Origin: Flaccisagitta enflata
Lineage: Eukaryota
Length of the DNA stretch: 64,000 bases
NCBI GenBank assembly: GCA_965153355.1
Contig: OZ231126.1
Span: 48,050,001-48,114,000, forward strand
Direction of reading: 5' to 3'
Numbering within the stretch: position 1 is the stretch's first letter; the number at the start of each line of letters is the position of its first letter. The notes under the pieces are model-generated. The model did not search any database. It was not told the origin of the DNA and was given only the letters and a program-made list of their open reading frames with translations. Shown here in pieces: positions 1,235 to 62,087 of the stretch. The position numbers and the translations under genes were made by a program.

Positions 1235-1283
1235 TTTGTTACTGTTGTTTGTTGCTGCTGTTACTGTTGTTGTTGCTGTCGTG

Positions 1284-3551: not shown

Positions 3552-3637
3552 TCTGTTTGAAATTTTAAAAAGAAAAAAAATTTTAGTTTAAAAAGCATAA
3601 AAATCAAAACAAATATTAACATTATAGTTATCAATAA

Positions 3638-6673: not shown

Positions 6674-6841
<168 letters not shown>

Positions 6842-6900
6842 GGAAACCGCCGATAGGAAAGGAATGAAGTTTCTTCCACAGATGAGAGTAAGAGAAAAAA

Positions 6901-7602: not shown

Positions 7603-7633
<31 letters not shown>

Positions 7634-8714: not shown

Positions 8715-8754
8715 TATCTAATTTTGGGGAGGAGAGGAAAAAAAAAAAAAAAAG

Positions 8755-9155
8755 ACTAACACAACTGGTATAGTGTTTTTGGGAATGTGTATTTTCTTTT
8801 TAAAATCTTTTAGAAAGCGTTTTTCTGCTGAAGAAAAAGGCTTTAATTTTTGGTTTCTTGCTTTTAAATATTCAAAAATTTGATTTCAAGATAGAGACAA
8901 AGCAGATAGAATTTTCCTAATATCTGTAAATCCTCCTTGGAAAAAAACAGTATTTTTTTTAATGAAAAAATCCCCATCAGGGCTCATGATTTTGTCTTTT
9001 TTCATTTACCCAAGTGAAAAATAAGAAAATATTCTATAAGCTTGACTTTTAAGATTGTTTACAAACAGAAGATTCAGTTTTGGTCTTATGGCAGATAAAA
9101 TATCTTTCATGGCGTCACTCATGACTTTTTTTAAGAAAACGACATTGTTTTGTTT

Positions 9156-9245
<90 letters not shown>

Positions 9246-9653
9246 CTGTTGTTGCTGTCTTTTGTTCTTTTGTTTCCATTTATCATCCTCTTTGTCATCA
9301 TTGCTATCATTTTCAGTGGTGGTAGCGCTAGCGTCGTCGTTGTTTTCCTCGCTGTTCATTTGTTTTGTTTTTGTTTGGCCACCATTTTGACGTTGCTCAA
9401 AAATGTCAGAGTGACCCCCGCCTTTTGATGAATTTGGATATCTCTTCCTAAATTTTGTCTGAAGTTTTTGTTCCAGTTTCAGATTATTTTCTTTTTGAAA
9501 ACGCAAAAAACAATCCTCAAGTAAGGAAGATTTAACATCTGTACCAAATTTGTTACTGTTCAAAATGTTAAAGATCTCCTTTCTAAGTCTTTTTGTCTCA
9601 TCAAAATGATCGTCAACATAGCCACTTCCTTTTGCGTTGTGTTTTGTACTCAT
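8755..9653 (-). pseudogene. Conserved gene upstream of integrase (PW-like), copy A
   Basis: EIFNILNSNKF and VFFQGGFTDIRKILSALSLS*..EKRFLK..HIPKNTIP align with QILEILRNKNKL and LHFHGRFKDI..KVLASLTLSQ..EKMLIK..NLPKSRIP of 49675-51231. Internal stops and a (CAA)n tract. The PW label is inferred from position and weak motifs. Confidence 0.6.
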
Positions 9654-10122
9654 TTTCTCTTTTTCTTCTTCTTTTTCTATCCCTTTTGTTTCTGTCTCCT
9701 GTACTGTTTCGTGAGATTGTTCTTCAGAGTTTAGTGTTTTCTACCGCTTGTTCATTCGTTTGTGACTTCTCTTCGTTCGTATCCGTATTATTCAATGAAT
9801 GAAGAGCTAACGGTTTTTTTTTTTGTTTTTTGAGAAGTTGGTCATGAAGAGAATTTTCTAGTAAAAGCCATTTGTTTTATGCAATCCCTATCCGTCCATC
9901 TGTCCGTCCGTCCAATTCTCTTATTGCTGATTCGTTCTCAATCACCTAATTGACAAATTGATAGTAGGTCCTTTTCATTCACGAGAAATGAGCGGTGTAC
10001 GTTAATTTGGCCAGATATTAAGTTTTTTGTGATGTTTGCGATTATTTTAGTTAATTTATCTGTGATTTTACTGTGATTTTACTGTGATTTTCGTCATCTT
10101 CTTTCATTGTCACATTATAAAG

Positions 10123-11460
10123 CTAGTTGGTTTGGGTTGAAGAGTCCGATATAACACAATTATTTTCAAATGTATTACAATTTGGCCGCCAAGTGCCATA
10201 TGATAAAAAGATCATTAAATAGTCCAATTCCCGAGTATCTACTTGGACATATCGTACACCGTCATCCGGATGAATTGCATCATCCAGGTTAAGATAGGTT
10301 TCTAATGGTAAACCCTGGGCCAGTTGGGCGAAGATACTTAAATCTAAAGGATGACATCTTATAGGCAATCGTAGGGGTGAAAGCCAGCTGAAACAAGATC
10401 CGTGTGTCAGAGCACTGACCGTGTTTGCTACAGCAGTACTCAACGTGACTTGGGATGTTAATAAATTATTGGATAGAAATGAATAACGAATATGGTTTTC
10501 AGGAATATGAATCCCAAGAGGCGGATTAACATGTTTTACTTTTGTGTGAGAACGCTTTAGGAATGTGTTTTGATCGGTCAATACTTTTTTTGCTTCTTTT
10601 AATTCTTGGTCTGAAAATTCACAAAAAAAAAGTCTAGAATTATGCAGAAGTCTATTTTTAAGCTCTCGTTCTGCGATTCTTGCTTGAGTTCCAAGCTTCC
10701 ATCTCTTAATTATTCCCCCCATTTTATTGCTCATTTCAGGGTAAAAAACATGCTTTAAAAACTGGAATCTGGATTGTTCAAAGAGCGATTTAAACGTGTT
10801 TCTAAGGAAATTGCGATCAAGATGCGTGTGCAAAGCGAGCCTTGCAAGGTTCCGCAACGGAGGAAATGGAGAATCATCCAGAAAATTGACTTAAATTGAC
10901 TTAAAAATGACTTAAAATTACTTGAAAATAAGTCCAGCCGGTCCTCTCACATTGAGATAAAATCGGCTATCGGCTTGTTGAGTTTTGCCCGTGATTGACA
11001 ACTCATGGTTTCGTGAGGTGGGGTGTTCCATATTTTCAAAAATCTTTCTATAATAATTTCTTCTTTCCCGACCGAAGTTGCTCTTCAAGCCTATGTTAGG
11101 ATTGAAGGACAATATGGAAACGGATATGAACAAGTCAAGACAAGATATGGCATGACAAAGACTTTTTTTTTCATTTTTTAATCTAACCTATGTCAATCGA
11201 TTTATGTAACGGATCGTAGCATATAATTTGTGTTTCTAAAATTTGAGGGCCACAACTGGAACTTGAAATATCACTATAAGAAGAGAAAGAGAAAAACATT
11301 GATTGGTTGACTTGACCATTAACGTGTGTTAGACCTTGTTTTTTCATCAACATTCCAGCTGCTCTCATATGGTTCTACTTACCGGAGCATAAACTGAATT
11401 TTTCTGTGATCCGACGAAATTCCATTGCGCTTTAACCATACTGCTTTTTGAGTGGCGTCT
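10123..11460 (-). CDS. Multi-exon unknown element gene, weak homolog of 51493-52900
   Basis: Three ORF pieces (11183-11368, 10918-11133, 10123-10857). Short matches to copy B: IICYDPLHKSIDIG~TLLYDNFHGNLSFG, FYLNVR~FFLAIR, HVFYP~SVFYP, IFLSYGT~RYLAYHT. Syntenic position. Confidence 0.5.
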
Positions 11461-21189: not shown

Positions 21190-23068
21190 ATAACTGATAT
21201 TATTCGCAAAAAGAAAAATGGTAAATCCACCCCAGATATCAAAAACAAAATGCTTAAACTTACTGGTGAATCTATGATTGAATTCCTATATCCCTTAGTA
21301 GAAACTATATGGAGAGAAGAAGCGATACCTTCGGTATGGAATAGAGGCGTGATTACCTGTCTTTGACAAGGAAGTCCTGTCCAATCACCGCGGCATTACC
21401 ATATCCTCAGCTATAGGAACTATAATAGAAACTATGATAGATAATCGTATTGAAAATATTGTGAAGCTGACTCCTGCCCAAGGAGGAGGAAAAAAGGGGT
21501 CCTCATGTTATGACCATTTGTTTATCCTTCGAGCCATAATTGATATCAGCTTAAAAGAAAAAAGATTGACCTACACAACTTACTACGATGTCAGCAAAGC
21601 GTACGACAACGTTGACAATTCCGATTTACTTATGACCATGTGGGAAAAAGGTTTACGCGGAAAATGTTGGCGAATCCTCAAGAACCTGAACACTAACCTT
21701 ACCGCGAGTGTTAAAACCCGTTTTGGTCCAACAAGAGAAATTAAAATGGAAATAGGAGGCAAACAGGGTTCGCGCTTAACAGGGAGAATGTTTGCCAAAA
21801 TGATGGATTTGATATCTGAGGAATTGGAGGAGACAGATTTAGGGTTTAAAATCACAGAAGACTTCCTTATGGCCGTACTCCTATGGGTTGATGACTTCAT
21901 TTCCTGCACAGAGGGAAAAATAAATCAGCAACAAATGTTGGACAAACCAAATGATTTTGCCACAAAACACAAGCTCAAATGGGGGCAAGCTAAATGCAAA
22001 ATTATGAAAGTGGGTAAACATGATAAAACTACGGATGAATGGAAATTGGGGGAAATGAAGATTGAAGAAACAGATAAATATAGATATCTAGGTGATGTTA
22101 TTACCCCTGATGGAAAAAATTTTGAGAATATTCAAAGTCGAAAAAACAATGTACAGGCTACCACAGTCAACATCAACACCATTGCTTCCAGCGAAACCCT
22201 GCACAATATTGAAACAATAGTCATCCTTGAACTGCATGAAAAAATTTGCATACCAGGTTTTCTTAACAACTGTGAGTCCTGGAAACTCACTAAGAAAGAA
22301 AAGATGGAACTTGAAAAAATCGAATTACAGGCGATAAAATACTTCTTCAACCTGCCAATACATACACCTTCGGTTGCCATAGTATACACACTTGGTCTTT
22401 TATACACAACACAACGTATTGACCAAATACAATTGTTATACCTACAGAAAATCCTGAAAAGAAACAATATTGATTGGGCAAAATCCACACTAAACACTCT
22501 CAAGGAAAAGAATATTGGGTGGTGTGTGAATATAGTCAACATTCTTCAAAAGTATAGTTTACCCACCGCTGTTGATACTATCGCAAATCTTCCTGTAGCA
22601 AATGGAAAAACACTGTGAAAATGGTAATCGAGGAGATGAATAAAGAAAGGATAAAAAATGACTTACACAAGCATGAAAATGGAACAGATGTCCTAAAGAC
22701 AAAAACTCGATCCATCTTTGACAAAATCACAGACCCTAACTATACACGTAAACCAGTGGATGAGATCCTACGGCTGACAGAAATGAGACCAAGACATTGA
22801 TAATAGCGCGATATGGAATGCTCGAGTGTGGGCAGAATTTCAAGGGCACCGCACGACCGACCTGTACAGTTTGCGATATGACTGATAATGAATATCATCG
22901 TTTGAACGATTGTAAAAAATGGGTGGGCTCTAATTTTTATGGCACTTCTGATTAAAGCTGATTTTGACCTGATTTACAGTTCCGACATTGACACGATTAA
23001 GTCCATACTCCCCAAAATCTGTTTCGTTTGGAATACGAGAAACGCCAATGGCACAATGCAAAAATGAT
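21190..23068 (+). pseudogene. LINE reverse transcriptase (ORF2 remnant)
   Basis: YDVSKAYDNVD, GGKQGS, LWVDD and KYRYLG motifs in 21434-22618. Flanking pieces are frameshifted and a Cys/His tail follows. Confidence 0.9.
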
Positions 23069-27190: not shown

Positions 27191-29080
27191 TCATTGTTCA
27201 GATCTAAACAAAGATACTACATACAATACAGGGTGTTCAATCTCAAAGTTACAAGAGTGTCTTTTCTTGTAGCCAAATTGTAAGGAATCAGTTGAAAGCA
27301 ATTGTCCAATCTTGGCAAAAATAGCATGTTCAAACAAATTCGAGAAAATAACACCATGAGTCAAACCACAATAATTGTTTGTATCAGTATAGTCACCTTC
27401 CGTATCTTTAATCAAAGGAGTAATCACGCCAATTAAAAATTCACAGGGAACATATGAATGCTGTATCATAGCGTTAAATAACAAATGCAAATGAATTGCT
27501 AGCTTGGGTGAACCTAGCAATATGTGCTCAGCTTTTAAAAAAGTAGCAGTAGCTTTTCCAGTTTTCAGATTCGAGAGAACATTCACCATTTTGTACCACT
27601 TCAAATAATGAGGTAAAAGAGAATCAGTATTATGCGTATCAAAATAGTCAGAATATTTACCATCAAATTCATTTTTTAATTTCCAAGACTGATATTCATC
27701 ATTCGAATCATATATGCTTTCAAACGAGTCTGCAAAACAATTAGCAATACTCTCATTACTACGTAAACCATTGATGTAAACATCACCGCGTTTACTATTG
27801 CTATTGTAATATTTATATGAACGCCAAAATTTATTATTGTCACCATTGGCTAAATCAGTATTCAAGGCATCTACATGATCTTGATTGCGATTTAATTTAC
27901 AGTTACGTAAATACAATTTGTACTTATAATGAGAATTTTTTTTTGCTTCAAATATCGGGCCAGATTTAGGACAACCATAAAGTTTCCAAAAGTCGTGTGA
28001 AACAATAGAATCATTTTTTAGTTCAGATAAAGTTTGATCCCAATAACATTTCCGTACTGTAGGAGTGAAACAAGGTAATTGATGATCTGCAGTTTTGATA
28101 CAATTAATGATTTCATTGTAATATCTTTCAACATCACCAATATGATTTGTATCACTACATAAATGAGAACCGTGAAGTATATCTGGTACAACAACATTTT
28201 TTAAGCATTGTTCCATAGTTTTTACGTAATTTAAACGAATATCTCCTTCTACCTTCTTCCAATCAACAATAGAGGGTAATGGATTAGATGCATACGTGAA
28301 TGATTCAATATCAAATGTAAAGGAAACAGATATGGGCAAGTGGTCAGACAAGTTCAACGAGTGATTCATTATTTCTACATTTTCAATGTATGGAAATAAG
28401 TCACAGCTTACAAAGACATAGTCTAATAAAGAAAAAGATTTTCTTACTAAGTCGCATCGTGAGTAAGCAGAATTACTATCAAAAGAATTATTGAAATCGT
28501 AGGTGCACATCAAATTTTTGTCAGACAAAAAACTATTCAATGCAGTTGAGAAACGGTTGTTACTAAGATATATATTGCAATTCATATCTCCTAGTAGGAT
28601 GATCTTTGAACCAGGATTATCTTGAATAACAGAATCAATAAAACTTAATACGTCAATAAAAGTATCAGTTTGTGAATCAATATTGTTTATATCGTAAAAG
28701 GGCATATAACAGTTAAGAAGCAAGAGTGAACCAATGTTTGAATTAATTTCCAAAACAGTCACGCGATCATGTATATACTCACAATGTGTTTTAATAGAGT
28801 TCGATAGACACTTATTCCATACATATCCAGTCCCGCCAAAAAGACGACCAGTCAATATTTTGCTCTGCATCTTTTTTTTCATTGCACTAGTACCCCAGCC
28901 GTCGAGGTCCTTGTGAAAAGACATCAATCTATTGACACCTGCATGTTGTTTTAGAGGAGGTCGTAGCCAATGTTCCTGTAATCCGTAGATGCAGGGTGAT
29001 GACGATAGACAAAGGTCGCGCACAAAACCTTCATTCCTGTCGAATCCATTGACGTTGTGAGTGACGATCTTTACAGGCAT
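27191..29080 (-). mobile_element. LINE ORF2 with APE endonuclease, 3'-truncated before the RT core
   Basis: 629-aa ORF with THNVNG, GLQEHW, LGDMN, LDYVF and SDHLP motifs; ends shortly after QFGY at the start of RT. Confidence 0.85.
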
Positions 29081-29082
29081 GA

Positions 29083-29724
29083 TTAAACCGCGATGGTTTG
29101 CTCATGCCCCGCAGCTGGTGAACGAGGACGCCAGAAGCAACGATAAAGAACGCCCTCTGGCAGCTTTTCGAAATCTGTCTGCTTGACAACCAGTTTGAAA
29201 GATTTGAAACGCTGATGACGAGTTTCGTTTTCCTCGATGCTGATGACGTCATATCCCTTTGAGGTCAAATCCGATTTGATTGTTTTGGCGTCGACGGAGA
29301 AAGCTACTCGACCTATGTAACTCTCTACCGTGAGATCGGCGCCACTCCACAACATGACGCCGCTGCTTGGTTTTTTCCAGATCACCATGTTTCTGTTTTT
29401 TTGAAAGTTGTTCATGACGCGATTTTCCGCAGATCTGATTGGCTGAAGGTCGCGTGACTTTCCACGTACCACGATGGAATTCGATGGCTGTTCATTCTCC
29501 GTGTTAGACGACGCTGTCGCAGATGCCCAACTTTGATGTGGATGAGATGCTGAGAACAACGCCGTCAACGATGGAGGCGCCGATCCTGGCGCCGGCAGCG
29601 ATGGCGACGGTGGCGGAAATGACGACGCCGAGTCCTCTGCTGAAGACAATGAGCCAGAAGCCGTCGACGACAACGGCGGCGGCGGCGGCGGCAATGAAAT
29701 TCTTACACAAAAAATGTCAACCAT
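29083..29724 (-). CDS. LINE ORF1 C-terminal fragment
   Basis: Abuts ORF2 with a 2-nt gap; YIGRV..FKSFKL..LPEGVLYR motifs resemble ORF1 of CR1/L2-group LINEs. Confidence 0.6.
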   Translation of the reverse strand: MVDIFCVRISLPPPPPPLSSTASGSLSSAEDSASSFPPPSPSLPAPGSAPPSLTALFSASHPHQSWASATASSNTENEQPSNSIVVRGKSRDLQPIRSAENRVMNNFQKNRNMVIWKKPSSGVMLWSGADLTVESYIGRVAFSVDAKTIKSDLTSKGYDVISIEENETRHQRFKSFKLVVKQTDFEKLPEGVLYRCFWRPRSPAAGHEQTIAV

Positions 29725-29847: not shown

Positions 29848-30846
29848 CTGTTATTGTTACTGTTATTGTTATTGTATTATTGTGTTATTGTTATTGTATG
29901 CAGTATCTTTGTTTAGATCATTTATGGGTTTCACCTGAATGAAGGGCTCTCTATGAAGCTCAAAATTTGTATTTTCAATTAACACAAATGTGTGTGACTT
30001 CCATGACAAAAGTTCGTTTTTAATAGATTAGCCTATACACTTTGAATCTGAACGTATCAAACACGAAAACCTTATTTATTGGCATTACTGGATGCATTGG
30101 TGTTAATTCATATTTTTGCTCAAGCCAGGACCCAGTATGTTAGTCAGATATTAAGTTGTAAGCAGACAATGAAACTTACCCCCCCCCCATCTTTTTCAGC
30201 TATTCTTGTCCGCTATCTATCTACCGCTATCTATCATTCCGACGCGGACTATAATTCAAGGCGGGTGGGTGTCGTCGTCGTTGTTGTTATTGTTGTTGTC
30301 GTTGTTGTCGTCGTTAGGGATTTTAAAAAATGGATAACTTTTTCAGGCCTGTTTGTTTTTGAGTCCCCCCCCCCCTGGTGGGGGGGGGGAAATCAAAGGG
30401 TCTGGAGATGGGGATGAAAATTAAAGGAGGAAAAAAGGAAAAAAAGGAATTTTGGAGAAAATATAACTTTTTACAGTACCAAATCATAAAACTCAATTAG
30501 TAAGACACAATTTAACACTATTTAAGCCTTAACTACATAGTTATATTGCTATAAGGGGAAGAAACATATGGATATAAAAATGCGACGCGACGTGTCGCGG
30601 GGAAGAAAATCAAACACGCTTTGTAATTAATGGGATCTACATCTAGGAAGAGATCATCGTCCAAATCTTTGTCATTCCAACCCCAAATTGTGTGGTGCAT
30701 GCCGGAAAACCGGCGTAAAAAAAATTCAGCTCTAACTTTTTCGTCAGTTTGCCATTATTGTCACCCGTCTTGATGGTGGCAACTGATAAAAAAGTTAAGA
30801 ATATTTAAAACAGTTTTTGTAAGCAAATCTACACAGAACCCTACAA

Positions 30847-35726: not shown

Positions 35727-38074
35727 TTTGTTTGTCTCTGTGTGTGTCAGTGTGTCTCTGTGTGTGTCTGGAGGGGAAGTTTAAGGGGTTGTAAGCCCCT
35801 AACTCTTTGTGAAGGTTTCCTCTAATAAACAAGGCTGGCTACACTTGCGGATGGGCAGGGGCCATGGATGGGATCACTAGAGCATTTGGGCAGGAGCAGT
35901 GAAGAAAACAACCACAAAAGTTTGAAAGAAGAATGTGACGGACCAGCAGTTGAAGAAAGCGAGGTGTAGAGTCGTGTAGAAAACGACTAAAAATTGTCAT
36001 GCTGGTGCAATCTAATTCTATGCACAATGAATGTCGTCAACTTGGAAATATAAGGGAATTCTTATCAGGATTTTAAATGAACCTGAGGGACTGATATTTG
36101 GAATATGAACTAAATGATGCCCATGATGGTTGGTTGCCATGGAAACACATTTTCATGTATTCCCACTAAAATATCGGTATTCAGGAACATTTCTCAAAAT
36201 TGGCACCTTTCCCACAACATGTTCAGTAAGAGCCGTTAAGCATCATATAGTCGTTACTAACTAAAGCAAAAAAAAAAAAAGCATAAAAAAAAATGAGACA
36301 GCTTATTTGGCTGATTTTACCTGAACTGAAGATGTAAACCGTAAAAAATCCATGACCGTTTTAAAGCTCTTTGAAAGATCTTTCTAATGCGACATTGCTG
36401 GTCCTACTAGCTTTATTCGTTTAGGATTGCAATGGTACAAGAATGATTAAAAACATATTCAGGTTTGCAATTCAATTGAATTAAAAGGGTTTTAAAAAGA
36501 AATAGTTCACTTTGACGAGCTCTAACTTTTAAACGGTTTGGGTTACTGCCCTGGGATTGGTCTTGAATAAAAGTAGATTTGAAAACCTTTGAAATGACTT
36601 TTTTTTTCTATGTCTTTCATGAACTAATAAAAAGGTACAGCTTTTGGGCAGCGGCCTCAAAGGGATCGATGACTAATGCTTTCACGCATATTGGGAATAC
36701 TCTCCTTCTCCTCCTTCTCCTTCTCCTCTTTCTCCTTTTTGGGCAACGGCCCTGAAGGGGTTTAAGACCTATGCTTTCACGTATGCAGAAAATTCTCCTC
36801 CTCCTTCTTGAATGTAACCCTCCTCCCACAAGGCCCAAATCCCAGTGGCCAGGCCCAAATCTTAACCTCAAGGCCCAAATCATAGCCATGAGGCCCAAAT
36901 CCCAGTCTTGAGGCCCAAATCCCAACCTTGAGGTCCAAATCCCAGCCTTAAGGCCCCAATCTTTGGCTCAACGCCCAAATCCCAGCCTTGAGGTCCAAAT
37001 CCAAGCATCAAGGCCCAAAATCCTAGCCCAAATCCCAGCCTTGAGGGATTTGGGCCTCAAGGCTAGGATTTGGGTCTTGTGGTTCAGATTTGGGCCTTGT
37101 AAGGGGGGGTGAGGGGTATAAAGGAGAGAGAAGAGAAGGTGGAGAAATTTCTGCATATGTGAAAGCATAGGTCATCAACCCCCGGGGGCCTCTACCCTGC
37201 CCCCTAATTCAAACTTAATCGCAAACTACTCCAGCAGGGCACAGGTACCGCTAACCACCAATTGGTTTTGCGGCTATTTCAACGTGGCTTTTACAGTCTT
37301 GACCATTTACTCTTTATCCTTATTTCATTTTGAGTCGCGCGCCACGCGACTCTACACCCCGCTTCGTCAGTCCATCAGTCTGCCAATCCGTCGATCACAC
37401 TTTACTTTTTGGGCAGCGGCCCCAAAGGAGATGAAGTCCTGTAGAACACAGGGGGACTTTAGTTTGTCCGTCCGTTCGTTTGTTCGTCCCCCCCCATCAG
37501 CCCCCTCAGGCCCCAAATCCAGTCTCTCAGGTCCCAAATCTGGCCTCCCAGGCCTCAAATCCGGCCTTTCAGGCCTGAAATCCGGCCTCTCAGGCCTCAA
37601 ATCTGGCCTGTCAGGTGTCAAATGTGGCCTCTCAGGCCTTCAATCCAGCCTCTCAGGCCTTCAATCCGGCCCCTCTGACCTCAAATCTGGCCCCTCAGGC
37701 CTCAACTCCAGCCCATCAGGCCTCAAATTTTGTCTCTCAGGTCTCAAATCTGTTTTGACAGGTCCCAAATCCGCCCTATAAGGCCTTAAACCTGGCCTCT
37801 CAGGCCTCAAATAAGCCCTCTCAGCTCTCAAATTAGGCCTCACAGGCCTGAAAGTAGCGCTGTCAGGCTTCAAATCAGATCTGATGGCCATCTAAGCCTT
37901 CAGACTCTTAAAGGCCTTCAATCAGTACACTATAGCATCTCATCAATCTTGTCAGGCAGGACAAATGAAAGTCCCCCTGTGTTACAGGACTTCGTTCAGG
38001 GCCTGCCCTACCCCTCCAAATTAGCAATCATGCCTGACCAGCACTGCTATTGCCCTTAGCCCCTGTTTCTGTTT

Positions 38075-38640: not shown

Positions 38641-41600
38641 TGCTGAGGTCTTTGGCCTCGCTCCTACTTGATGCTCCTTCAAGTGACCTAAATTATGGCC
38701 CCTGCCCACCTGCATGTGTCCGGGGTAGCTGTGTATCCGTCCTTGTTAAACGGATCAAGGTATGACAACCAGCATGTTGCCATTTCGAAGATCTTTTGAT
38801 CTTTCATTCCGTTACACTTAACTTTTTTGGCGTTTATGAGGTTTTTGGCCTTACTGCTCCTGCCCAAGTGCTTCACTGACCACAAATGTTGCCATTGTCC
38901 ACCCACACGCGACTGGGGTAGCCATACATCTGGCCTTGTTTATAACACTGCCATTTAACATCAGTTTTTTAGATGCGTCCTCGCATCTCTATAAGAGGGC
39001 CTGTCCGTCCGTCCGTCCGTTGGTCCGTCGGTCCGTCGGTCCGTTACGCCTCTTTAAATATCGCGTTTTTCAGCTGTTTTTGGCCACCGCGAGATTGTAT
39101 ACTGAATTAAACGATCGATACACGTGTTTTGAGAGACTTCTTTGACTCTTATGTCAGATATTCCAGCAGTTAATCTATCTGTTAAGTCTGTTCATCCATC
39201 TGTCTAACACAATCAGCGCGAATTTTGCTCCATGTAAGGACACAGTCAGGACGCATCGTTGCCCGGTCGGGCTTGTTTATTTCAGGCCTGTATATTATTG
39301 AGGTCTAGAGATGGGGAAGGAAATCAAAGAGGGAAAAAAGAGAAAAAAAGGAAATTTGGGGAAAATATAACTTTGGACAGTACTAAATCATGAAATACAA
39401 TTAGTAAAACACAATTCAACACTATTTTAACCTTAACTACATTGTTTTATTGCTATATGGGGAAGAAAATCAGAGATATAAAAACACGACGCGAAGCGTC
39501 GCGGGGAAGAAAATCAAAGGCAGGGAGGGAAAAAAATCAAAAGCGACTCAATAATATACACCCCTGTTTTATTCGCTCTCCGAATATCAAAAGAGATAAT
39601 ATTCATATCATATTTCAATATTCCAATCACTATTAGATTAAATGATGTTATCAAAGTAGCTTGATGGAAATAAGTAGGCAAATAAGACAGCCAAACAAGA
39701 GCAAGCCAACCAGGCCCTGCAGCCTGCAGCCCTGAAGCTGGCAAGAATAGTGGGTTCAACAGCTAATTTGAGGGCCTTAGGCCTGCGGTCCCGCATTAAA
39801 ACAAGTGACGCAAGGCCTCAATGTTATTGCGGACGGGTGGGCAAGGGCATCCAACCCCCATCCACACCAAGTTCTGCACCCTCATACACAAAATGCATCT
39901 TAAACACTCGTTTTTGCACTCTTCGACTAGTGTTCATGGACTGACGGACTGACAGACAAAGCCTCTTATAGAGTTGCGTGTCCGCAACTAAAAAAACCTG
40001 CAAATGCACTTGCAAGTGCCAAAAACTGGATGACATAAACAAGCATATTTTCACATCCATGCAAATGCGGGTGTCTTTGGCCCACATATATACTGATATA
40101 CTGCCCCTGCCCCCCTGAATTACTGCCCCTGCCTTCCCAAAATACTGACCACCTGCAAATGACTACCTATTGTCCGTGTATACAGCCTTGTTTAAATTCA
40201 AACTGAATAAAATCACACAAAAACTAAAATCTGATAAGGTGCCTTCAAGAGCTTGAAAGAAGCAGTTGACGAGCTGTTCCAGCATGCCTTCTGGAAGGCA
40301 CTGTCTCCAGTCTGACCAATGTGTTCAAAAGCCATCTACATCGAAGTTGTTAACGGGTGGTCAAAAAAAAAGTGACTTTTTTATTTTCTCATATTTTTTG
40401 TAAAAAATGTTTAGAGTAAAATTTCTTCTTTTGCCAATAAGATATGGTGCAGGAGAATTTTTTTTTATCATTATGATTTTTAACGTAATTAATTCACCCC
40501 AATATATTTCGAGCATCACGCTCTTTTTCAAGGGCTTCTGTATATTTCAAATTATTCACAATAAACAGATTTTAATTTTGGACCGCCTTGATTTTTGCTA
40601 AGAATTTTCTGTAAAAAAATTTAAATTTTTTTATAGATTCATTATTTATAATTAAGGACAATTCAAAAACTGATAAAAAACCTTGGAAGAATTATAAAAA
40701 TACAAACATATAACAAAACAAAAGATACTTCTAAATAACATTCTTTTCTTTTCTACTCAAATATCTTAAACTAAAGCTTGGAGGCTTACAAATAATTGCA
40801 TTTATTTCAGATGGGACCAGTAGTGGCAGTACATACGCCGGAGGGGGGTTCAGCCTGGGTTCAGCCTGGGTTCAAAATCCAAATCCTAACCATGCACCTC
40901 GGTCTATTCTTCCTTCTCGTTTCATGTCATGATGAATGAAAACCATTTCGTTCGATTTTTATGTTTTACTTTTCACAAATAAATGTAATCGAAACGTTCG
41001 AGTCTTCTAATTTCTCTGAGTTTAAGTTTTCGTATTAGATATTCAGCTCTTCGTTTCAGTCGCAGACACGAAAGCTAACTAAAACAAGTTAGGGTACACG
41101 GCAATCCAGTTGCGGACGTTTGGGCAGGAGCAGTGATGCGAAAACCATTCAGAATTCAAAAATGTGACCGATCGACGGACTGACCAACGGACTGACCTAC
41201 CTACTTACCGACCGACTCTTCTCGACTAATAAAGCATCTTCATAATTAATTGTATCTGATTGTTGGTCGGTCTATTTGTTTGTAATGCTTTAGTTTAGTT
41301 AACTAGATTGATTACGATAGATTGCTAGAACATTTTTATTTGTCATTCTGATATAACGATTATTGTCGAAAGATAATTATTTGCAAGTTTCAATCATTAC
41401 GATGTCAATTGGCTAAGAGGAACGATACGATATCTAATGAATCAGTTTTCTTAAATCATGATTGTTTTTTTAAATAGAATCGATTAAGCTTTCTTCCTTC
41501 TTCGTTTTTTAGTTTTCCTTTTTCTTTTTCTTCCAGTTCCCGATCGTTTTGCAGCCTGATTGAAACAAAAACAAAGCCAGATACAAGATAATGCAGGTGC

Positions 41601-42697: not shown

Positions 42698-43228
42698 TTA
42701 ATTTAATTTAAAATGGTTTTTCATTCCTTTCATCATGTATTGCTCATTTGTTTTATCACCGTTATTCAACATCATTTTGCGAAAGGCAAGAAATTTTTTG
42801 ATATTTAAGGAATGCGCTTTGAAAACCATGAAACATGCTAACTGACCACATTTAAATGAGTTTTTGGATTGAAAGGGAAAGGAAAGATCAATGAGTTGTA
42901 AATTGTTTTTTTTACAAAACAATTTGATATTGTCTTTTATTTTTTTGTCAAAATTGACTGTGCTGAGACCATTTAATAGAAATGCTTGATTGGTTTGTTT
43001 ATTGATAAAAATTAAAAACCAATGACCAATTCCTTCTCCTTGTAATTTGGTGTTTGTAATGATACAGTACTTGTTTTTTCTTTTAAACTGTTTTAAATCT
43101 AGTTTTAGTAGTTTGGAATGAGGCATAATCAACCTTCCATTTAAAGTTATTTTTTGACATTTATTGCAATTTGAAATAATGTTTCGAAGGTCTTTTGTTG
43201 AAGTGACGTCAGAATTAACAATGTTCAT
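42698..43228 (-). CDS. Adenain-like cysteine protease, copy B
   Basis: 176 aa with IITNT, IGHWFLI and FQSKNSFKCGQ; Asn (LLNGL) sits where copy A has Asp. Confidence 0.85.
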   Translation of the reverse strand: MNIVNSDVTSTKDLRNIISNCNKCQKITLNGRLIMPHSKLLKLDLKQFKRKNKYCIITNTKLQGEGIGHWFLIFINKQTNQAFLLNGLSTVNFDKKIKDNIKLFCKKNNLQLIDLSFPFQSKNSFKCGQLACFMVFKAHSLNIKKFLAFRKMMLNNGDKTNEQYMMKGMKNHFKLN

Positions 43229-43275
43229 TGTTATTGCTGATGCTGTTTCTGCTGCTGTTGCTGTTGCTGTTGCTG

Positions 43276-45562
43276 TTACTGGTCGATGTCAAATGATTTC
43301 CACACTTTTCCTTCTCTGTCAATAGCAACTGCTCCAGGTTGACGATACAAAACGGTGACCCTGATAAACAGTAGTTGTTATTTATCGTGCACTAATTTAT
43401 GAATAGGTGTGTGTATTATAAGAATATCATTTTGTCTACTGACCGTTCAATACCTCACTATGTACGTCGTTGTTTTTTTGAAACGAAGGAAAAGAGAAGC
43501 TTTTCCTCTGTTTCCGGTAATTGTTGGCTTGTGCAGGATTTTATCTGCAGCTAATCCAGTAAAATTGGTGGATGAGCTGTTTGCTGACACCCGAAACGGT
43601 AGGAAAAAAAAACTGGACTGCCAAATTTTCAGGGGAAGAGGGCTTCCCTGCTCAGAGAGAAAACCACAGTGCTCCAAAACTTGAAAGTAGCTGGCGCGAG
43701 TGTGTTTATCATCTTCCAATGAATATCCAATACTCTCACCAATGGATCCAACTGGCAAGGAAGGTACCCTTTAAATAGAATATAAAAGGGAAGTTATGTA
43801 AAAGAAATAAAGAAAAAACAATGTTAATGAAATATAATTTTATACATACTTACTTGACATTAAGTCCAGTTGTAAGAAAAGCTTGCTTGAGATCATGTGG
43901 TTCAAGCTTGAGCAAACATTCCGTAAATGAACCAGTGATGTTCAAATTCTTATGAAAAAAAACATAAGCTTCCGTCCAAGGGTCTTTGGTTGAAATGTCC
44001 AAATTGGCCTCCAAATGACCCTATAATGTGGATAATTATATAGGTTTGTTTACTGACTGTAATAAAAAAGCATTACAATACATATGAATCTGTGCACTGA
44101 CTGACCGATTCAACTGAGAAGGTCTTTACGGTCGAACGAAGGAATTGAAATTGTAAAGAACCACTTGAACCGTTCAACTTCTGATGTATTTGGAGGAGAC
44201 ATTGTGGTTCAAGCAAACATGCCAGGATGTGCAAGGTTGCTGATTTCACCACCAATTTTGGTATACAGCCAGCGACTGCTGTGCAAAACAACCTCTCGTC
44301 TTCAATGATTTGTATTTTGATACCAATATCAACGTTGCTGTTACAAATTCAGAGAAAAAAACCCAATTATAATAAGGAACTGTTAAAAATTATTCATGTA
44401 CTATTCTGTTATCTAACTGTAATTTAAAAAAAAGAGAGATACCTGGGAATGAGCGAGGGGAAGGAATTCAAAGCACAATGCAATGAAATGAACTTGTTGT
44501 GAACTTTTTTGGCAAGAAGGGACTGTGCAATCTCCCCTTGGGTGTTGTTTGGTTTCACAGTGCCATCAGTTTTGTAGCATGTAGAAATATCTTTTGACAA
44601 ATCTTGAAAGTCATCCAAATATCCTTCGAACTCACGAAGGAAGCTAAAATGGTTAAATGAATAAAAATGATAAAACAATAAAATGATAAAATGATAAAAT
44701 GAAAAAATGATAAAATGATAGAATGAAGCAAAACAAGACCTTTCTTTGGCTGCTTTTGAGAATTTGAGATAGTTGAGTTTCTGAATGAAAGGATAGTATG
44801 TTTCTGTCCTTTCAACTGATGCTTCTCCAATATTGACACTGCATGAGGAGATCACACTTTGAGCGAGTACGTTGTTAGCTGTAATGAGATAATAATGGAT
44901 AAGTAATGAAATAGAAGAGAAAAGCAGTGTTTCTACTAAAAACTCAAATTTCTAACTACCTGTGACGTAATGGGTTTGTTCAATTGGATTGCCATTCGAT
45001 AGTTGTGCGTAAAACTCCAGTTCTGTGCAAGATCATGAAATATTGTAGGGATTTTATTGTAAGTTGGGAAAAGAACTATTTGATGATAACTAATTATTTA
45101 CGTATTTAACTGTACCTAGGAATATACGACGACAGTCGACAAAAGCATTTTCATCGCGAAAATAGAAAGACATGGTTTTGGTCTCTCTCATGACGTCATC
45201 TCTTTGCAATGGTTTCAAACTAAGATATTTCAGGAGTGTATATAGTTCATAACTTAAGATGTATCTTTTTTTTTAATTTTGATATTTTTTGGTCATGGTT
45301 AACAAAAATGTGTATTATAAGAATATCATTTTGTCTACTGACTGTTTAATACTTTACTATTGTTTGTCAAAGTTCAAATATTGTTCAATTGTGTTTTATT
45401 ATTTGGTATTTATGGGGGTATAGAACTATATACATGCCTGAGATATTTAGAGTATTGTATTCCAGAAGATATGAGTAGCTCATTGTCACTGAGAAGCGAA
45501 GTTACACCAATATCAACGGTGTTTTTTGGGGGGTGAAAGGTGGGTGGGGTTGCGTTGTCCAT
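43276..45562 (-). CDS. Major capsid protein (double jelly-roll), copy B, 9 exons, 476 aa
   Basis: Exons 45562-45438, 45219-45116, 45022-44960, 44878-44740, 44643-44443, 44337-44106, 44020-43854, 43768-43454 and 43360-43276 total 1431 nt, with all phases compatible and no stops. Motifs NNVLAQS..SVNIG..YYPF..AKES, LIPSNVDI and VKTFSV resemble Polinton PY. Confidence 0.85.
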
Positions 45563-45586
45563 TGTTTTTTTTAATTGCTCTGTATT

Positions 45587-45883
45587 TTAAATGAAGCTGT
45601 CTTTGTCAATAGATGGTCGGGTTTTGATAGCTTTTTTTACAATTGCTTTTTTAGTTGCTTTTACTGTCGTTGGTTTTGGTTTTGGTTTTGGTTTTGGTTT
45701 TTGTTTCGATTTTGTTTCTGATGGTTTGTTTTCTATTTTCCTTTTTTTTGTTGTCTGAGTATCTGAAGCTTCTAAACTTCGTTTTCTTTTTCCACTGTTG
45801 TTGTTTTGTTTACTGCTGTCAACTTCGAAGGTGTAATGAATGTCACGTGTATGTGTTGAAAACGTTGGTGTGTACCAAGACAT
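45587..45883 (-). CDS. Small basic protein (putative core protein), copy B
   Basis: 98 aa, K/P-rich, with KRKR and KKRK NLS-like clusters; ends IDKDSFI*. Confidence 0.6.
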   Translation of the reverse strand: MSWYTPTFSTHTRDIHYTFEVDSSKQNNNSGKRKRSLEASDTQTTKKRKIENKPSETKSKQKPKPKPKPKPTTVKATKKAIVKKAIKTRPSIDKDSFI

Positions 45884-46108
45884 CTGCTAAGGCAATAATA
45901 CAAAATAAAAACATCAATAAATGGGTTTAAACAATAGAAAAACATGATTCTATCGGGTGGGAGAACGGCGGAAAAGGGGTAAGGGGGAGGGGTGTGCAGG
46001 GTTTAACAAAAAAAAAGAAATCACAATTTAATAAGGTGGCAGAGGGGGGAGGGGTGAGGGGAAGGGGTCTGTAGGGTTTGGGATTCAAAAATAAGAAAAA
46101 AAAGTTTT

Positions 46109-47692
46109 TTATTGGTTCGTAGAGGTTGGCCTGATATTCAGTCCGATTCTTATGTGACATTTTGGAGCAAACAGGACAGGCTTCATTTCTTCATCAACAA
46201 TGTGAAACTGAATGCGTGTAAGTAATCTGGTATTAAGCCTGTGATAGCAAAGGTTGTCATCTTGCTTGCAAATGAATTGATTACTTATTGATGCGTCATC
46301 AATCGGAGTGGAGTAAATGATGTTACAGGTTTCAAAAGGTGTGTTTTTCAGCCAAAAGTTACAAGTGGGCGAAAGAATGATGTTACTGAGCAAATGAAAC
46401 ATTTTTGGTGATGGACGTACAGGGAAAAATGTAGTTTGTCCTTCATTGGTAATCGTGTTTGTCAGGTTGTTTTGGGGTGATAGTAAGGCTTGGTTACTGT
46501 AAATGGGTCCAATTGTTAATGATGAGTCTGAACCCAAAACATGAGATAGTTTGGGAGGAAAAATGATTTTGATTGAACTTCCGTTATCAATCAGATACAA
46601 CGAAGTTTCAAAGTCAACTTTCAATTTTCCCGTTGTTTCATTGAGTGACATTGTGAGCAGATGGTCGTTGATTGGTGGGTTTCTGTTCCTTTTGTCTATT
46701 TTCTTCGTAAGCAATTGCAGTGTATCATGGAGTTTCATTGCTTGGAAGATAAGGGCTTTGTTTGCTGCAATAAGACCATTCAGAGAATCTATGGTGCCTG
46801 TTGTAAGTGGACTGTTTTGGTTGTTTGGATCACTGTGTTTTATTACATTCAAAAGTGTCAAATAATTCTCATAGTCTGTTTCTATTGCTTGTTTGGGACC
46901 ATCCTGTTGGTTGCTGACTTCGTCCAGGTCTTTACCATAGAAGAGAGCTAAATCAATGACATGGTCGTGTCTTCCTCTAGTTGCTGGACGTTCGTTATGT
47001 GGTCTCAATGCCTTAGATTTTAGTAATAGGCTTTCTTCCTTTCTAAGGGTGTAGTTGTCGCAGTCTTTGCTGTATGTGATGTGATCATCCAATTGATAGC
47101 CTGTCTTCCCTAGTTTTTTGTTCAGGAATTCATACAGGACATTTCTCGTGAAAATGCTGATATTTATGTAGCGGTTAAGAAGTTTGATATCATCTCTTGT
47201 CAAAAAATGGGTGTCTTCTGGAGAAAAGACGTTGTCGTCGAGTACAATCTGCAACATTGATCTTAGTACGAAATGGATGTACGGTATCAATGTTTCACGG
47301 TTCAAGAATGTAAGTAACGTGTCTGACTCCGAGGTTATGAGATCTTTCAAAGGTAAACGATGGAATTGTTTATTCAGCTTGTTTTCAGTGTAGAAGGCTG
47401 AATAGAATCGGTTGCCTCCTGCGAGCGCAGATGGAATGTTGACCTGTACTTTGATTTCTTCATCTTTAGTCACAGTTAACGGTAAGTTGGTTAGTGATAA
47501 GTGTGAGATAGCAATTTCTGCATTTGTTGATTTCATGTAAAGTAAGGGAGACAGATCAATCGTTCTATCAAGTACTAGTTCAAATGAACCGGCTGAGCTG
47601 ATGTTTGGATTTGACAAGTTGTTTTCATTATCAGAGTTAGATAAAAACAGTTGATATGATTCAGTTTCCATTGAAAGATGTGAAAAAGCCAT
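46109..47692 (-). CDS. Minor capsid protein (penton/PX-like), copy B, intronless, 527 aa
   Basis: N-terminal YQLFLSN..FELVLDRTIDL..EIAISHL and C-terminal YHRL..IQFHIVDE..PVLF..IGLNIRP are typical of Polinton single-jelly-roll pentons, with a large central insertion. Starts 8 nt after the integrase stop. Confidence 0.8.
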   Translation of the reverse strand: MAFSHLSMETESYQLFLSNSDNENNLSNPNISSAGSFELVLDRTIDLSPLLYMKSTNAEIAISHLSLTNLPLTVTKDEEIKVQVNIPSALAGGNRFYSAFYTENKLNKQFHRLPLKDLITSESDTLLTFLNRETLIPYIHFVLRSMLQIVLDDNVFSPEDTHFLTRDDIKLLNRYINISIFTRNVLYEFLNKKLGKTGYQLDDHITYSKDCDNYTLRKEESLLLKSKALRPHNERPATRGRHDHVIDLALFYGKDLDEVSNQQDGPKQAIETDYENYLTLLNVIKHSDPNNQNSPLTTGTIDSLNGLIAANKALIFQAMKLHDTLQLLTKKIDKRNRNPPINDHLLTMSLNETTGKLKVDFETSLYLIDNGSSIKIIFPPKLSHVLGSDSSLTIGPIYSNQALLSPQNNLTNTITNEGQTTFFPVRPSPKMFHLLSNIILSPTCNFWLKNTPFETCNIIYSTPIDDASISNQFICKQDDNLCYHRLNTRLLTRIQFHIVDEEMKPVLFAPKCHIRIGLNIRPTSTNQ

Positions 47693-47700
47693 GATAGTCT

Positions 47701-49614
47701 TTAAAACATAAGATGTTTGTTAGCTGGTTCATGAAAGATTTTTGCAAACACGAGGATGTTTTTTCCGAATATTTTTCGATAGAGTTGAAGGGTTTCCTTT
47801 GTTACTTTCTCAATCTGATCCGCTCTTTTGATAGTGTAATAAAGAGTTGATTTATTGGAAAGTTTCTTTCTTGATCTCAAGGATTCTTGGGTGTCGTAAA
47901 CAAAATCTTGAACTATAATTTTGTCACTGGGGTTAATTTCTCTCTCAAACTTCATTCGTTGTAATTGTTTGTGGTAGGGCGTGACACGTTTCAAGTCAGT
48001 GTAATAGTACTTTCTCGATTGGGTGGGGTCAGATGAAATGATGTACGAATATGGTAGCATTGTCTTGTCGACCTTGACAATTGTGGCGACATCTTGATGA
48101 AACTGTGGATCAAATGAAGAAGCTGCTTTCTGAAATGTCGTTTTTCGTTTTCTCAGCAAAACTTTTTCTCCTTCATGAAAAATGAGTTTAGGACGTATCG
48201 AAAATATGTTGCGGAGTTGTCTTTGTTTGTTTTCATGTTGACTTAGTTGATCTCTAGCTACTTTTGCACTAGCTTCTGAGTCAAAATGTGTTTGGAAAGG
48301 GGTGAATTTTGTTTGTTTTCCCAAAGAGGAGTGTTTTCGATTATTGAAGATTGAAGCAACCAGATGCAACAAGCTTGAATGTCGCAAATGCAAAAAATGG
48401 TGTGCGAGTTTAAAGAAAATGACCTTTAAACTCCTGATTGTTCTCTCGATTACTAGTGATGCAGTCAGTGTACAAAACAGTGTTTGTTACTAATGAATTA
48501 TTACAAATATTTTGATCAGTTGTAAAAAAAAAATAGCGGGCTGAAGATTCTTAATTGTCAAGTTAAAAAATTTGATACTCATTAAATATGTTACCACTGT
48601 TTTGTCTACTGACTTGACACTTTTGGGAAGAGTCCAGTTTTGACAAACCAAAATTTAATTCCAAGATCTTCAGAGAGATGTTTTTTGAACGATTTCTTGA
48701 ATTCAGAGCTGAAAATATAAAAAAATATAATAAATGGTTAGTTTATATTTTGAACTATTTTGTTTACAGACTGTTTGGTTTTGCTTAATTCTATTTGTTG
48801 GAGGGTTGGTCGGTATGTTATTCGGTACGTCTGTACGTCAGTAATTAGTTGATTGACGATCATGTTGCAGAATATTGGTTCATTTGGTCTTGTTCTCCTT
48901 ACCCTCTATCGCTCAAGAATTTAAGGTAACGATCTTGTCCTGTCGCTCCAAAAAATGGCATAGCATCTTTGAATGCTTTGAGACATTCAGCTGAACTTGG
49001 GCGTGACAAGGGAGTGAGGTGCACTAAACGAGAGAACAAATCTTGAAAGACTACGATGGAGATTTTTTCACCGCTTAAACGTTGCAATGATCGTGGAAGA
49101 AATAAAATATCGGCTAAGAGAATATTTTTAGGTGCGTAACATTTGAATGAACGTTGCTGAATAGTCCTCGCTCTATTATAAAACAGGGGTGTATATAATT
49201 GACTGTTTTTTGGTTATATTTTTTTACTTGTTTGGTATTATCAAATATGCTGAATGATAAAAAAATTTTTTGTTCTTCTCATAAATTTTTTTTATATCTG
49301 AACTTTTTTATTCGTCTTTTCTACTTTTTACTGGGGGGGGGAGATACTGGAGGGGGGGGGAGTCAATTTTATACATCCCTGTTTCGAAGCGTTCTTTGAT
49401 GAAATGATCTAGAAATTTCTTCAATTGAGTTTTTATAGTTCAATATCTCAGCTTTAGAGACCGCGTACAGTTCTGAGTCTTTTTTTGCTTTCTCATAGAT
49501 GTTATTTACATTGTCCTCAAGGAACAGGGGGTTGTTGATTGATTTATATTTCCTGTACAGATCTTCAATGACGTGGTTCCTGTTGTCGTCACCTTCAAAA
49601 ACGATCCGATTCAT
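47701..49614 (-). CDS. Retroviral-type (rve) DDE integrase, copy B, 4 exons, ~446 aa
   Basis: Exons 49614-49375, 49156-48903, 48708-48614 and 48452-47701 give LLAD..QDLFSR..LSDRGSEF..KVSIIERTIRSLK..FNNRKHSSLG..TP. Intron 1 boundaries are ambiguous. Confidence 0.9.
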
Positions 49615-49674
49615 TCTTAGGAAAAGAGAAACAGTGAAAATATGGAATTAAGGCATAATTCTGCCTACATACGA

Positions 49675-51231
<1,557 letters not shown>

Positions 51232-51492
51232 AGTAACTGTTTAAAAGATAACGAAAAGTGTAAGCAAGCTGAATACTCATGTCTTATTTGTTTTGTTGAC
51301 GTGATTGACTGGTTCCATGATTTTCAATATTATAGATATTAAACGACACTTTTTTATATGAGTTTTGATAATGAGAAGACATTGATTTTTTAATGAAAGG
51401 AACAACATTTGCAATCAAACACATGAAAACACATGAAACACATCAAATACATGAAAATGGGAAAAAAACATGGTTTCGGTAAAATAGTTACG

Positions 51493-58657: not shown

Positions 58658-59973
58658 TTTGTCTATTTGACCTCAAAGCGCGTTTAGGATACTATATGTG
58701 TGTGTGTGGGAGTAAGGGGGCGTTTTTCACGCCCCTGCCCACCCGTCCGCAACGATATTATGACCCCGCGTCACTTGTTTCACACTTGTTTCAATCTTTT
58801 TCCTTTAATCACCTCGATTCTTTCTGTTCATGTTGTTATCGCCTCTTTTCGCTCGCCCTCGTTTTAATCTTATATCTATCTACTATGAAGTTCAGCTTTC
58901 CTACTGAATTCCCTTTTTGTGTCTCAGCTCGATGTATTCACAACCCATTTAATTTATCTCTTTTCTTTCTTTCCCCTATTCTGCCCCCACACTTTTCATT
59001 GCTGTTGGCCTTCCTTGAGGCCCCATTTCATATACCTCCCCTCCCCAACTTCCCTCTTTATCGGCCATCACACCTCTTGTTCTTAGCCTCATTTCAATCC
59101 CATTTCCCCAGCATTATAAATCCTGTTGAACACCGCTCTAATAGGCCCGCCACGAACGGATAATGTTAATTAGTTTCATGAAATTCCTTAGGGCGGGATT
59201 TGACTGTACCTCCCCTTTCTGACTCTCCTCTTTTGCGGCCTTCACACCTCTTGTTCTTAGCCTAATTTCAATCCCCCTCCCCCATCATTACATANNNNNN
59301 NNNNGGCGTCTGCTCGGCTGCAGAGTGGAGGAAATCGAGGAAGAAGGAGAGAGATCTTCGATCGACGGAGGAAGGGGAGGAACGCGCGAGCGCACCGGAA
59401 GCGCTGACTTCCGGTTGAGGATTGATGGACTATATCTCCTCCACCGCTTAGAGGAGAAAAGACTTCGACCCCTCTATCGAATTCCCACGACGTGACGAGT
59501 CTATTTATCATTGTTTCATCGCTGCCAAATAATTTCAAATCTCGTGATGCTTTGATTCACTTTTTGTTATTTCCAGGTTAAGTAAAAGTAGCTTCCCTGA
59601 CTTTCTTACTGACATTCGATTTCACGATCTCAGTTAAAGACTCGATTTTGATGCTTTTCCCCGACTTCCCTGGCCTGCGCCTAGATTGGAAACCGTTCGA
59701 CAACATCTATTGTAAGTCCTTGACCTTTTATCATTTTGGCGCCATATAGAAGTATCCTTCATTGATGTACAGAGCTTGTCCTAACCTTTTTCCTTTTTCT
59801 CTGTCCGTCAGGATTCCACGAATAGACTGATTTCGCGGACAACTTGACCGCTCATCTCAACAATTCGTTCTAAGCGGGTGTGCGTTCCAAATCTTTAGCG
59901 CAGCTACGCAGTGGAGTCAGTTCTCGCGATTACGCATCAGGAGCTTGCTAAGAAACTAGACGCTAAACGCTCT

Positions 59974-60144
<171 letters not shown>

Positions 60145-60148
60145 TTAC

Positions 60149-62087
<1,939 letters not shown>

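Follow-up and report, generated by a model that had tools for sequence, protein, structure and literature searches.

How do two introns of one gene come to share a stretch of DNA? The question is raised by a 64,000-nucleotide (nt) piece of the Flaccisagitta enflata assembly GCA_965153355.1 (contig OZ231126.1, positions 48,050,001 to 48,114,000), hereafter the window, in which a virus-like element, copy B, appears to carry genes for an rve-type integrase, an Ulp1-like protease and capsid-like proteins, labels that are partly putative. The capsid-like gene, which a preliminary description of the window had called MCP (a putative label as well), was rebuilt as a model with an open frame of about 470 codons, in which introns 2-8 are of the GT-AG type and 81-105 nt long, and predicted intron 1 consists of a miniature inverted-repeat transposable element (MITE), E2. 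The answer that we favour, with moderate confidence, is that E2, the MITE that forms this predicted intron of the virus-like element, recently received a copy of a short tract at the exon 8/intron 8 junction. The gene model is as follows.

43276-45562, minus strand: capsid-like gene, nine exons and eight introns (rebuilt gene model)
45562-45438, 45219 (or 45201)-45116 and 45022-44960, minus strand: exons 1-3 of the model
44878-44740, 44643-44443 and 44337-44106, minus strand: exons 4-6
44020-43854, 43768-43454 and 43360-43276, minus strand: exons 7-9

In a repeat search of the window, minus-strand positions 43410-43461 and 45309-45360 were found to be identical at 48 of 52 sites (92%). The pair reaches an E value of 1.1e-13 in a low-complexity-filtered self-BLAST of the window and is the only one, among the 175 pairs listed, with both members inside 42-50 kb. 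The preliminary description had noticed a minus-strand 43-mer, matching at 41 of 43 sites, at the 5' end of intron 8 and inside intron 1; this 43-mer is the inner part of the 52-nt pair, and both the match and its placement agree with the nine-exon, eight-intron model. The longer match continues 8 nt beyond the 43-mer into exon 8, where 6/8 sites are identical, and at all four of its mismatches the exon 8/intron 8 copy has G where the intron 1 copy has A.

43410-43461, minus strand: presumed source copy of the 52-nt repeat, comprising the final 8 nt of exon 8 (43454-43461) and the initial 44 nt of intron 8 (43410-43453)
45309-45360, minus strand: second copy of the 52-nt repeat, inside MITE E2, within predicted intron 1

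Copy B has 11 predicted introns, eight in the capsid-like gene and three in the integrase gene, and when all of them were aligned with each other (110 oriented comparisons), the pair of intron 1 and intron 8 alone stood far above shuffles, with a score of 78 against a null maximum of 31. Intron 8 is 93 nt long, and 44 of these fall in the repeat. Two trivial origins had been named in the preliminary description as grounds for discarding the observation, a generic high-copy repeat and an error of assembly, and neither agrees with the data. The 52-nt repeat does not look like a high-copy repeat: in X1, a DNA run of the organism, the summed contig depth is 1062 and 1374 in the bins of the two copies, about 940-1800 in other bins and 15,604 at a simple repeat, contig depth being only a rough guide to copy number. 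It is not an assembly artefact either, because the copies differ at four sites and independent contigs of two DNA runs, X1 and X2 (the latter from a marine metagenome; both contain the locus), reach each of them. X2 record 25 terminates in the intron 1 copy, X1 record 2 and X2 record 22 start in the intron 8 copy, and no listed contig crosses either copy entirely. Exact-pattern scans with the core of the 52-mer returned 0 matches in viral contigs and 0 in metagenome contigs.

The second copy lies within a transposon.

45231-45440, minus strand: E2, 210-bp MITE of family F1, accounting for all of intron 1 of the capsid-like gene

E2 has inverted ends (45231-45247 and 45424-45440, CAGGCATGTATATAGTT and CAGGAGTGTATATAGTT) that match at 15/17 sites, and next to each end stands the 8-mer AGATATTT (45223-45230 and 45441-45448, read on the plus strand), a target duplication without mismatch (8/8). 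Taken as RNA together with its flanks, it is predicted to fold into a long stem that pairs both ends (z -3.9). In P0016-18, three near-identical paralogous proteins of 85 amino acids from public assemblies, which are 86% identical over the aligned part and effectively represent one lineage, the reading ...QYSKYLSLKPLQRDD... is unbroken across the E2 site. Their translations continue past this site into intron 2 and therefore stem from genomic DNA without E2. P0015, which is 98% identical and encoded on separately assembled public contigs, has the insertion and covers the 3' part of E2. Because P0016-18 are uninterrupted at the site at which P0015 has E2, the MITE is a recent insertion into a former single exon. 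An empty-site allele was not found among the contigs of runs X1 and X2, from which rare variants get dropped. The population allele seen as P0015 shows two 1-nt deletions within 45248-45300 (at 45266 and 45285; run X2), and an open reading frame (ORF) of it begins within E2 and runs in frame into exon 2.

E2 is one of several members of its family in the window. The F1 end motif CAGGNNTGTATAWAWTT occurs six times, against 0.03 expected (0/100 shuffles reach six), and the six matches form three inward-facing pairs, which bound E1, E2 and E3.

39283-39566, plus strand: E1, F1 MITE of 284 bp between genes, sharing the inverted ends of the family; the 8-mers on its two sides agree at 6/8 sites
30399-30614, plus strand: truncated F1 copy (the 30.4-kb fragment), without inverted ends, 86% identical to E1 over 218 nt
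49184-49381, minus strand: E3, 198-bp F1 MITE in intron 1 of the integrase gene, with inverted ends 49184-49200 and 49365-49381
47701-49614, minus strand: integrase gene, four exons, 446 codons, with introns 49374-49157, 48902-48709 and 48613-48453

Transposons of the hAT type make 8-bp target duplications and have short ends starting CAG. The 8-bp duplication, the ends starting CAG, the small size and the lack of coding capacity mark F1 as a MITE family that is probably of this type; the assignment, taken from ends and duplication, is best worded as hAT-like, the link to a transposase being only putative. E1 and E2 have a 49-nt core in common (78% identical), which is also present in the 30.4-kb fragment. 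Neither of these two other copies with the core (2/2) has the 52-mer, and at that position both have a different stretch of similar length. As counted over the 64-kb window, there are three full F1 copies, two of them in genes, and one copy of a second family, F2. The ends of E3 match at 21/23 sites, its site is uninterrupted in the one relative that covers it (P0069), and four contigs of run X2 diverge beyond the F1 end at 49220.

The second family is represented by E4, in the last intron of the integrase gene.

48463-48614, minus strand: E4, 152-bp MITE-like unit of family F2, filling integrase intron 3 (48453-48613)
44045-44057, minus strand: F2-end-like motif GTCAGTAAACAAA in intron 6 of the capsid-like gene, which also starts GTCAGTCAGTG
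48759-48771, minus strand: F2-end-like motif GTCTGTAAACAAA in integrase intron 2

The preliminary description had seen a 14-nt core of the shared sequence at the start of integrase intron 3 and a variant of it within intron 6, and both are present. The core, GTCAGTAGACAAAA (48600-48613), forms the left end of E4 and provides the donor GT (GTCAGT), and the variant is the motif at 44045-44057. The inverted ends of E4 (48595-48614 and 48463-48482, AGTCAGTAGACAAAACAGTG and AGTCAGTGTACAAAACAGTG) match at 18/20 sites, a score reached by 0/300 shuffles, and the right end, inverted, reads ACTGAC a few bases ahead of the acceptor; GTCAGT in the F2 end resembles a donor and the inverted ACTGAC a branch point. 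The 14-nt core is the terminal inverted repeat (TIR) of F2, and the similarity between E4 and intron 8 ends at the 14-mer. A 13-nt form of the motif, GTCAGTARACAAA, occurs six times in the window with at most one mismatch, against 0.34 expected (0/100 shuffles reach six), and five of the six matches lie in copy-B introns on the sense strand. The F2 end gave 0 matches in an exact-pattern scan of viral contigs. Ten relatives of the integrase were taken from a representative search; nine of them span the E4 site, all uninterrupted, and a GT-AG model of intron 3 reproduces the K-x4-ER spacing of these 9/9 relatives. The MITE ends of E2, E3 and E4, together with the uninterrupted relatives, show that at least three of the 11 predicted introns are transposon insertions, belonging to two families.

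Where did the tract within E2 come from? Both paralog ORFs found with exon 8, P0013 (93%) and P0014 (87%), read through intron 8 and contain TVS..N.., which corresponds to a GTCAGT-type motif; in copy A, a second and very divergent element in the window, an intron lies at most three codons from the intron 8 site and in the same phase. Intron 8 itself therefore predates E2. Read in the same register, the resident junction gives IVRY*TVSRQNDILIIH and the E2 tract IVKY*TVSRQNDILIIH, P0013 gives IVRLDTVSEKNDVFKIH and P0014 gives IIRYITVSKQNSKGRQK. Because the first two differ by one residue, as against the diverged readings of P0013 and P0014, the E2 tract groups with resident intron 8, after its split from the paralogs. 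The Arg codon of the junction is kept in both paralogs and E2 has a derived AAG, which, along with the coding bases contained in the tract, points to copying from the gene into E2.

The course of events that we favour is the following. The 210-bp hAT-like MITE inserted recently into a single exon of the capsid-like gene. Further downstream in this gene, at a distance of 1.9 kb, lies the boundary of exon 8 and intron 8, and a 52-nt tract across it would later have been copied into the MITE. We infer that this happened by short-tract ectopic conversion or by templated repair of a break, in the course of which the tract would have taken the place of the positionally equivalent MITE stretch; the E2 copy would afterwards have gained four G-to-A changes. 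Within E2 the tract is most likely functionless. A precedent is offered by hAT elements such as Ac/Ds, which undergo abortive gap repair with filler DNA: in E2, too, part of the interior of a non-autonomous element seems to have given way to a short copy of DNA from close by, and the joints have a few bases in common. Unlike in Ac/Ds, there is here no transposase, excision footprint or second example, and the mechanism is deduced from the end product.

Several findings weigh against a recent copy into a spliced, MITE-built intron. The direction of copying is read from translated read-throughs of the paralogs rather than from paralog DNA, and the comparison of copies is at the scale of the window, so that E2-like copies with the tract may exist elsewhere in the genome. 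Target duplications are weak for E3 (4/8) and E4 (4/6 at best), and neither a symmetric extension of the E3 ends nor a common target duplication for E4 was convincing when sought. Around E2, GT-AG pairs would remove or swap residues, and the reading of the relatives is obtained with a single pair of splice sites, of the GC-AG type (45437-45220, 218 nt). In two metatranscriptomes with thin coverage, no RNA contig joins any of the 11 introns; where contigs enter introns they follow the genomic sequence, over 26 nt of intron 8 and over as much as 71 nt of integrase intron 3. They cover only 42906-43386, 45735-45892, 47209-47476, 47581-48524 and 49432-49672, leaving out exons 1-8 of the capsid-like gene and exons 2-3 of the integrase gene, for which missing cover is no evidence of absence. 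Within integrase intron 3 the RNA contigs end near a homopolymer at about 48523, and RNA that runs into introns could be unspliced RNA, the product of internal transcript starts or DNA carry-over. A further objection comes from L001, the one match to the F1 end in an exact-pattern scan of metagenome contigs (the scan of viral contigs gave 0). This contig, which carries an F1-ended element, has no homology to the genes of copy B apart from a translated MITE end, and it contains AAAATTATATTCTTATAAT, which agrees with the right half of the 52-mer at 18/19 sites, directly after the F1 core AAACACAAT; the order of core and tract-like stretch is the same as in E2, and 0/400 and 1/300 shuffles are as good. 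Because L001 holds this match, part of the tract may be native MITE sequence, prior similarity perhaps having guided the copy.

L001 thereby lends itself to an explanation close to that of the preliminary description, in which an F1/F2-type transposon seeded the 5' part of intron 8 long ago, perhaps with the last codons of exon 8, E2 carries the segment natively and the 92% identity is due to homogenisation. It would also fit such a common mobile origin that the 30.4-kb F1 fragment has TACATAGT at the equivalent of the tract's left end, the same 8-mer that spans the left end in exon 8, that the F2 end motif occurs in intron 8 of both paralogs and that exon 8 of copy B extends three codons past the copy A intron site. 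However, the exon 8/intron 8 region is no more similar to E1, the 30.4-kb fragment and E3 than shuffles are (89, 192 and 160 of 300 shuffles, respectively, equal it), and neither inverted ends nor a target duplication were found in intron 8; inverted repeats were likewise not found at the ends of introns 2-8 as a whole, in which there is one weak 11-nt internal pair, in intron 2. The E2 tract is, moreover, closer to resident intron 8 than to that of the paralogs, and a recent copy would be required anyway, and we consider a common mobile origin unlikely. What stands of the earlier proposal is that mobile elements have built some of the predicted introns, that the 14-nt core is the TIR of E4 and that the 52-nt identity is best taken as homogenisation, in the form of a recent copy over 1.9 kb; the 52-mer is not a transposed intron. 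An intronic signal kept by selection, such as a U1-binding GTCAGT decoy, a splicing enhancer or an intron-hosted small RNA, would agree with the enrichment of the 13-nt motif on the sense strand of copy-B introns, its retention in intron 8 of two paralogs and its position 10 nt downstream of a weak donor (GTATTG). Selection on a motif would not yield 48/52 identity including exon bases, the motif is accounted for as a MITE end, no Rfam match was obtained for the window at gathering scores or for 43200-45600 at E up to 1, and 61-nt stretches at both copies fold like shuffles (z 0.32 and -0.86). A selected signal is hence improbable as the origin of the repeat, and the shared splicing or regulatory motif that had been put forward earlier cannot explain 52 nt at 92%, though the 14-nt core may be such a motif. 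Intron transposition by reverse splicing would be suggested by a shared sequence of two introns of the same gene that begins exactly at the donor GT. This candidate was rejected because a whole-intron copy with exact boundaries is absent: the shared part comprises 44/93 intron nt along with 8 exon nt, and the second copy sits inside a unit of another kind. Together with an assembly artefact, to which the four differences, the independent contigs of two DNA runs and the separately assembled public contigs that encode P0015 with the 3' part of E2 are opposed, it is scarcely credible.

A different kind of doubt concerns the introns and leaves the account of the 52-mer unaffected. E2, and perhaps also E3 and E4, could be disruptive insertions in a decaying endogenous copy, and the GT-AG and GC-AG introns annotation artefacts. 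The lack of splice joints in RNA contigs that run into intron 8 and integrase intron 3 would be expected in that case, as would the lack of a frame-restoring GT donor for E2. E2 is also recent, as judged from its perfect target duplication, and absent from the paralogs, and nothing can therefore be concluded from the frame being intact in the rest of the gene. In one study, intact vertebrate Mavericks are described as intronless, with insertions mistaken for introns (PMC8097293). On the other hand, the four large genes of copy B are all open once the 11 segments are removed, and the paralog contigs of X1 and X2 keep the exons while their introns, in the same places, vary. E3 and E4 seem to be older insertions than E2, and still no stop interrupts the 446 codons of the integrase frame, and the spliced E4 model matches the spacing of 9/9 relatives; this intact frame and the family-typical spacing weakly favour removal of E3 and E4. 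Insertions without splicing are thus a possibility to be taken seriously, if one to which we give the lesser weight. As to the individual units, E3 and E4 are probably removed by splicing, and for E2 the same is conceivable and somewhat doubtful.

Bursts of intron gain are explained above all by introns born from transposable elements (TEs). Documented cases come mostly from protists and fungi, with viral elements as the proposed vehicles. Introners, that is, TE-born spliceosomal introns, are well documented from TIR DNA transposons (Gozashti et al. 2025, PMC12130899; review PMC11282704). Like the introners described there, E2-E4 are short non-autonomous TIR elements in coding exons, at sites that relatives lack, with a target duplication that is perfect for E2, and an element end gives one splice site (GTCAGT in E4, GTATAA in E3). 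Unlike them, the units described here have predicted splicing, number three genic copies in one 6-kb stretch and, in the case of E2, need a GC donor (compared with PMC12130899). The introner-like signature that had been suspected in the 52-mer is found in E2, E3 and E4; the 52-mer, with 44/93 intron nt and 8 nt of a conserved coding exon, is not an introner unit.

Introners are also carried by Maverick/Polinton-like proviruses of dinoflagellates, in which most of the insertions are thought to be later than integration (Gozashti and Corbett-Detig 2025, PMC12166617). The present locus is similar in having intron-type transposons in the genes of a virus-like element, inserted, as in the case of E2, after integration; it differs in that the host is probably an animal and that the Maverick identity of the element is not established (compared with PMC12166617). 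In Fritillaria borealis, MITE-derived introns are non-canonical, usually AG-AC or AG-AT and rarely GT-AG (Henriet et al. 2019, as summarised in the review). There, too, MITE insertions are tolerated through splicing, with pairing of the inverted ends joining the ends of the intron, and the ends of E2 pair in its predicted fold; in contrast to that species, 10/11 introns fit GT-AG here. A non-exhaustive literature search, made without supplementary lists, which may include this host, returned no report of MITE-built introns in animal Maverick-like elements.

The locus can therefore be described as one with TE-derived introns of a known type, now in a probable animal host, with predicted splicing. 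In 6 kb of a probable animal genome, the genes of a multi-copy virus-like element hold three intervening sequences made by transposons, which belong to two families and differ in age, and the empty sites of the paralogs make it a compact natural test of the splicing of fresh MITE insertions. The 52-nt repeat is a minor by-product, the value of which lies in marking the timing and direction of sequence exchange between intron and transposon. A bolder idea, which we hold to be rather improbable, is that the resident MITE captured a working exon-intron junction, donor and following motif included, from its host gene, with the F2 end as a second ready-made introner. If this were true and E2-type copies spread, an ordinary MITE would have a direct route to gain splice signals and become intron-generating, an event caught in the act inside an animal virus-like element able to move between genomes.

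The integrase label is supported by the relative P0069, which reaches 29.5 bits on Pfam rve (curated cut-off 32.6) and has a match to the transposase family phrog_157 with E 2.7e-12; the protease label is weak, the protease of copy A reaching 19.5 bits on Peptidase_C48 (cut-off 20.7), and the ORFs of copy B itself have no Pfam match. Pfam scans of eight copy-B ORF or exon translations, four copy-A ORFs and five ORFs at 51.5-62.2 kb, other ORFs at 53-61 kb being left out, gave no pPolB, packaging ATPase or double jelly-roll capsid, and sequence searches of Pfam, PHROGs and PDB with the capsid-like genes gave no usable match. On these grounds a Maverick/Polinton identity of copy B is not established. 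For a neighbouring ORF of 536 amino acids, 12 relatives were found, each of them unnamed and derived from a metagenome assembly, and none in viral contigs. Upstream of the integrase gene, an ORF of 521 codons (49675-51240, minus strand) contains long stretches of poly-Asn and poly-Glu and matches no family.

Copy A (about 560-10900, minus strand) has the same gene order as copy B at 27-30% protein identity. In its capsid-like gene, introns stand at sites 5 and 8 or close to them and are missing from the copy-B sites 6 and 7, and neither F1 nor F2 ends were found in copy A. In the capsid-like gene of copy B, intron 4 (44644-44739) is a run of the 8-nt unit ATCATTTT, a common simple repeat, at which the contig depth of each of the four runs is 10-15 times as high as in adjacent sequence. 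About 25 nt past the F1 end, the flanks of the L001 element (680-724) and of E3 (window 49157-49183) are similar (TAATAG..C.AG.ACTATT); on the side of E3 this flank reaches the acceptor of integrase intron 1, and the element end may be longer on that side. E1 is probably nested in a larger transposon of about 1 kb, bounded by a 56-nt inverted pair at 38965-39020 and 39940-39995 (80% identical) with (GTCC)n-like subterminal repeats.

Copy B is also flanked by an inverted pair of about 300 nt (36281-36595 and 60624-60918, 81-84% identical, 24 kb apart), which could be the ends of the element or two copies of an unrelated repeat. At 59973-61235 on the minus strand, two exon-like ORFs match Pfam Astacin with 24.1 and 29.5 bits against a cut-off of 22.5, one of them with a HEIGH motif, and the region looks like a host metalloprotease gene. 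ORFs of the long interspersed nuclear element (LINE) type lie at 21353-22618 on the plus strand (RVT_1, 57 bits) and at 27191-29101 on the minus strand (endonuclease families, weak matches below the cut-offs). Because of the astacin exons and the LINE ORFs in the window, the host is probably an animal.

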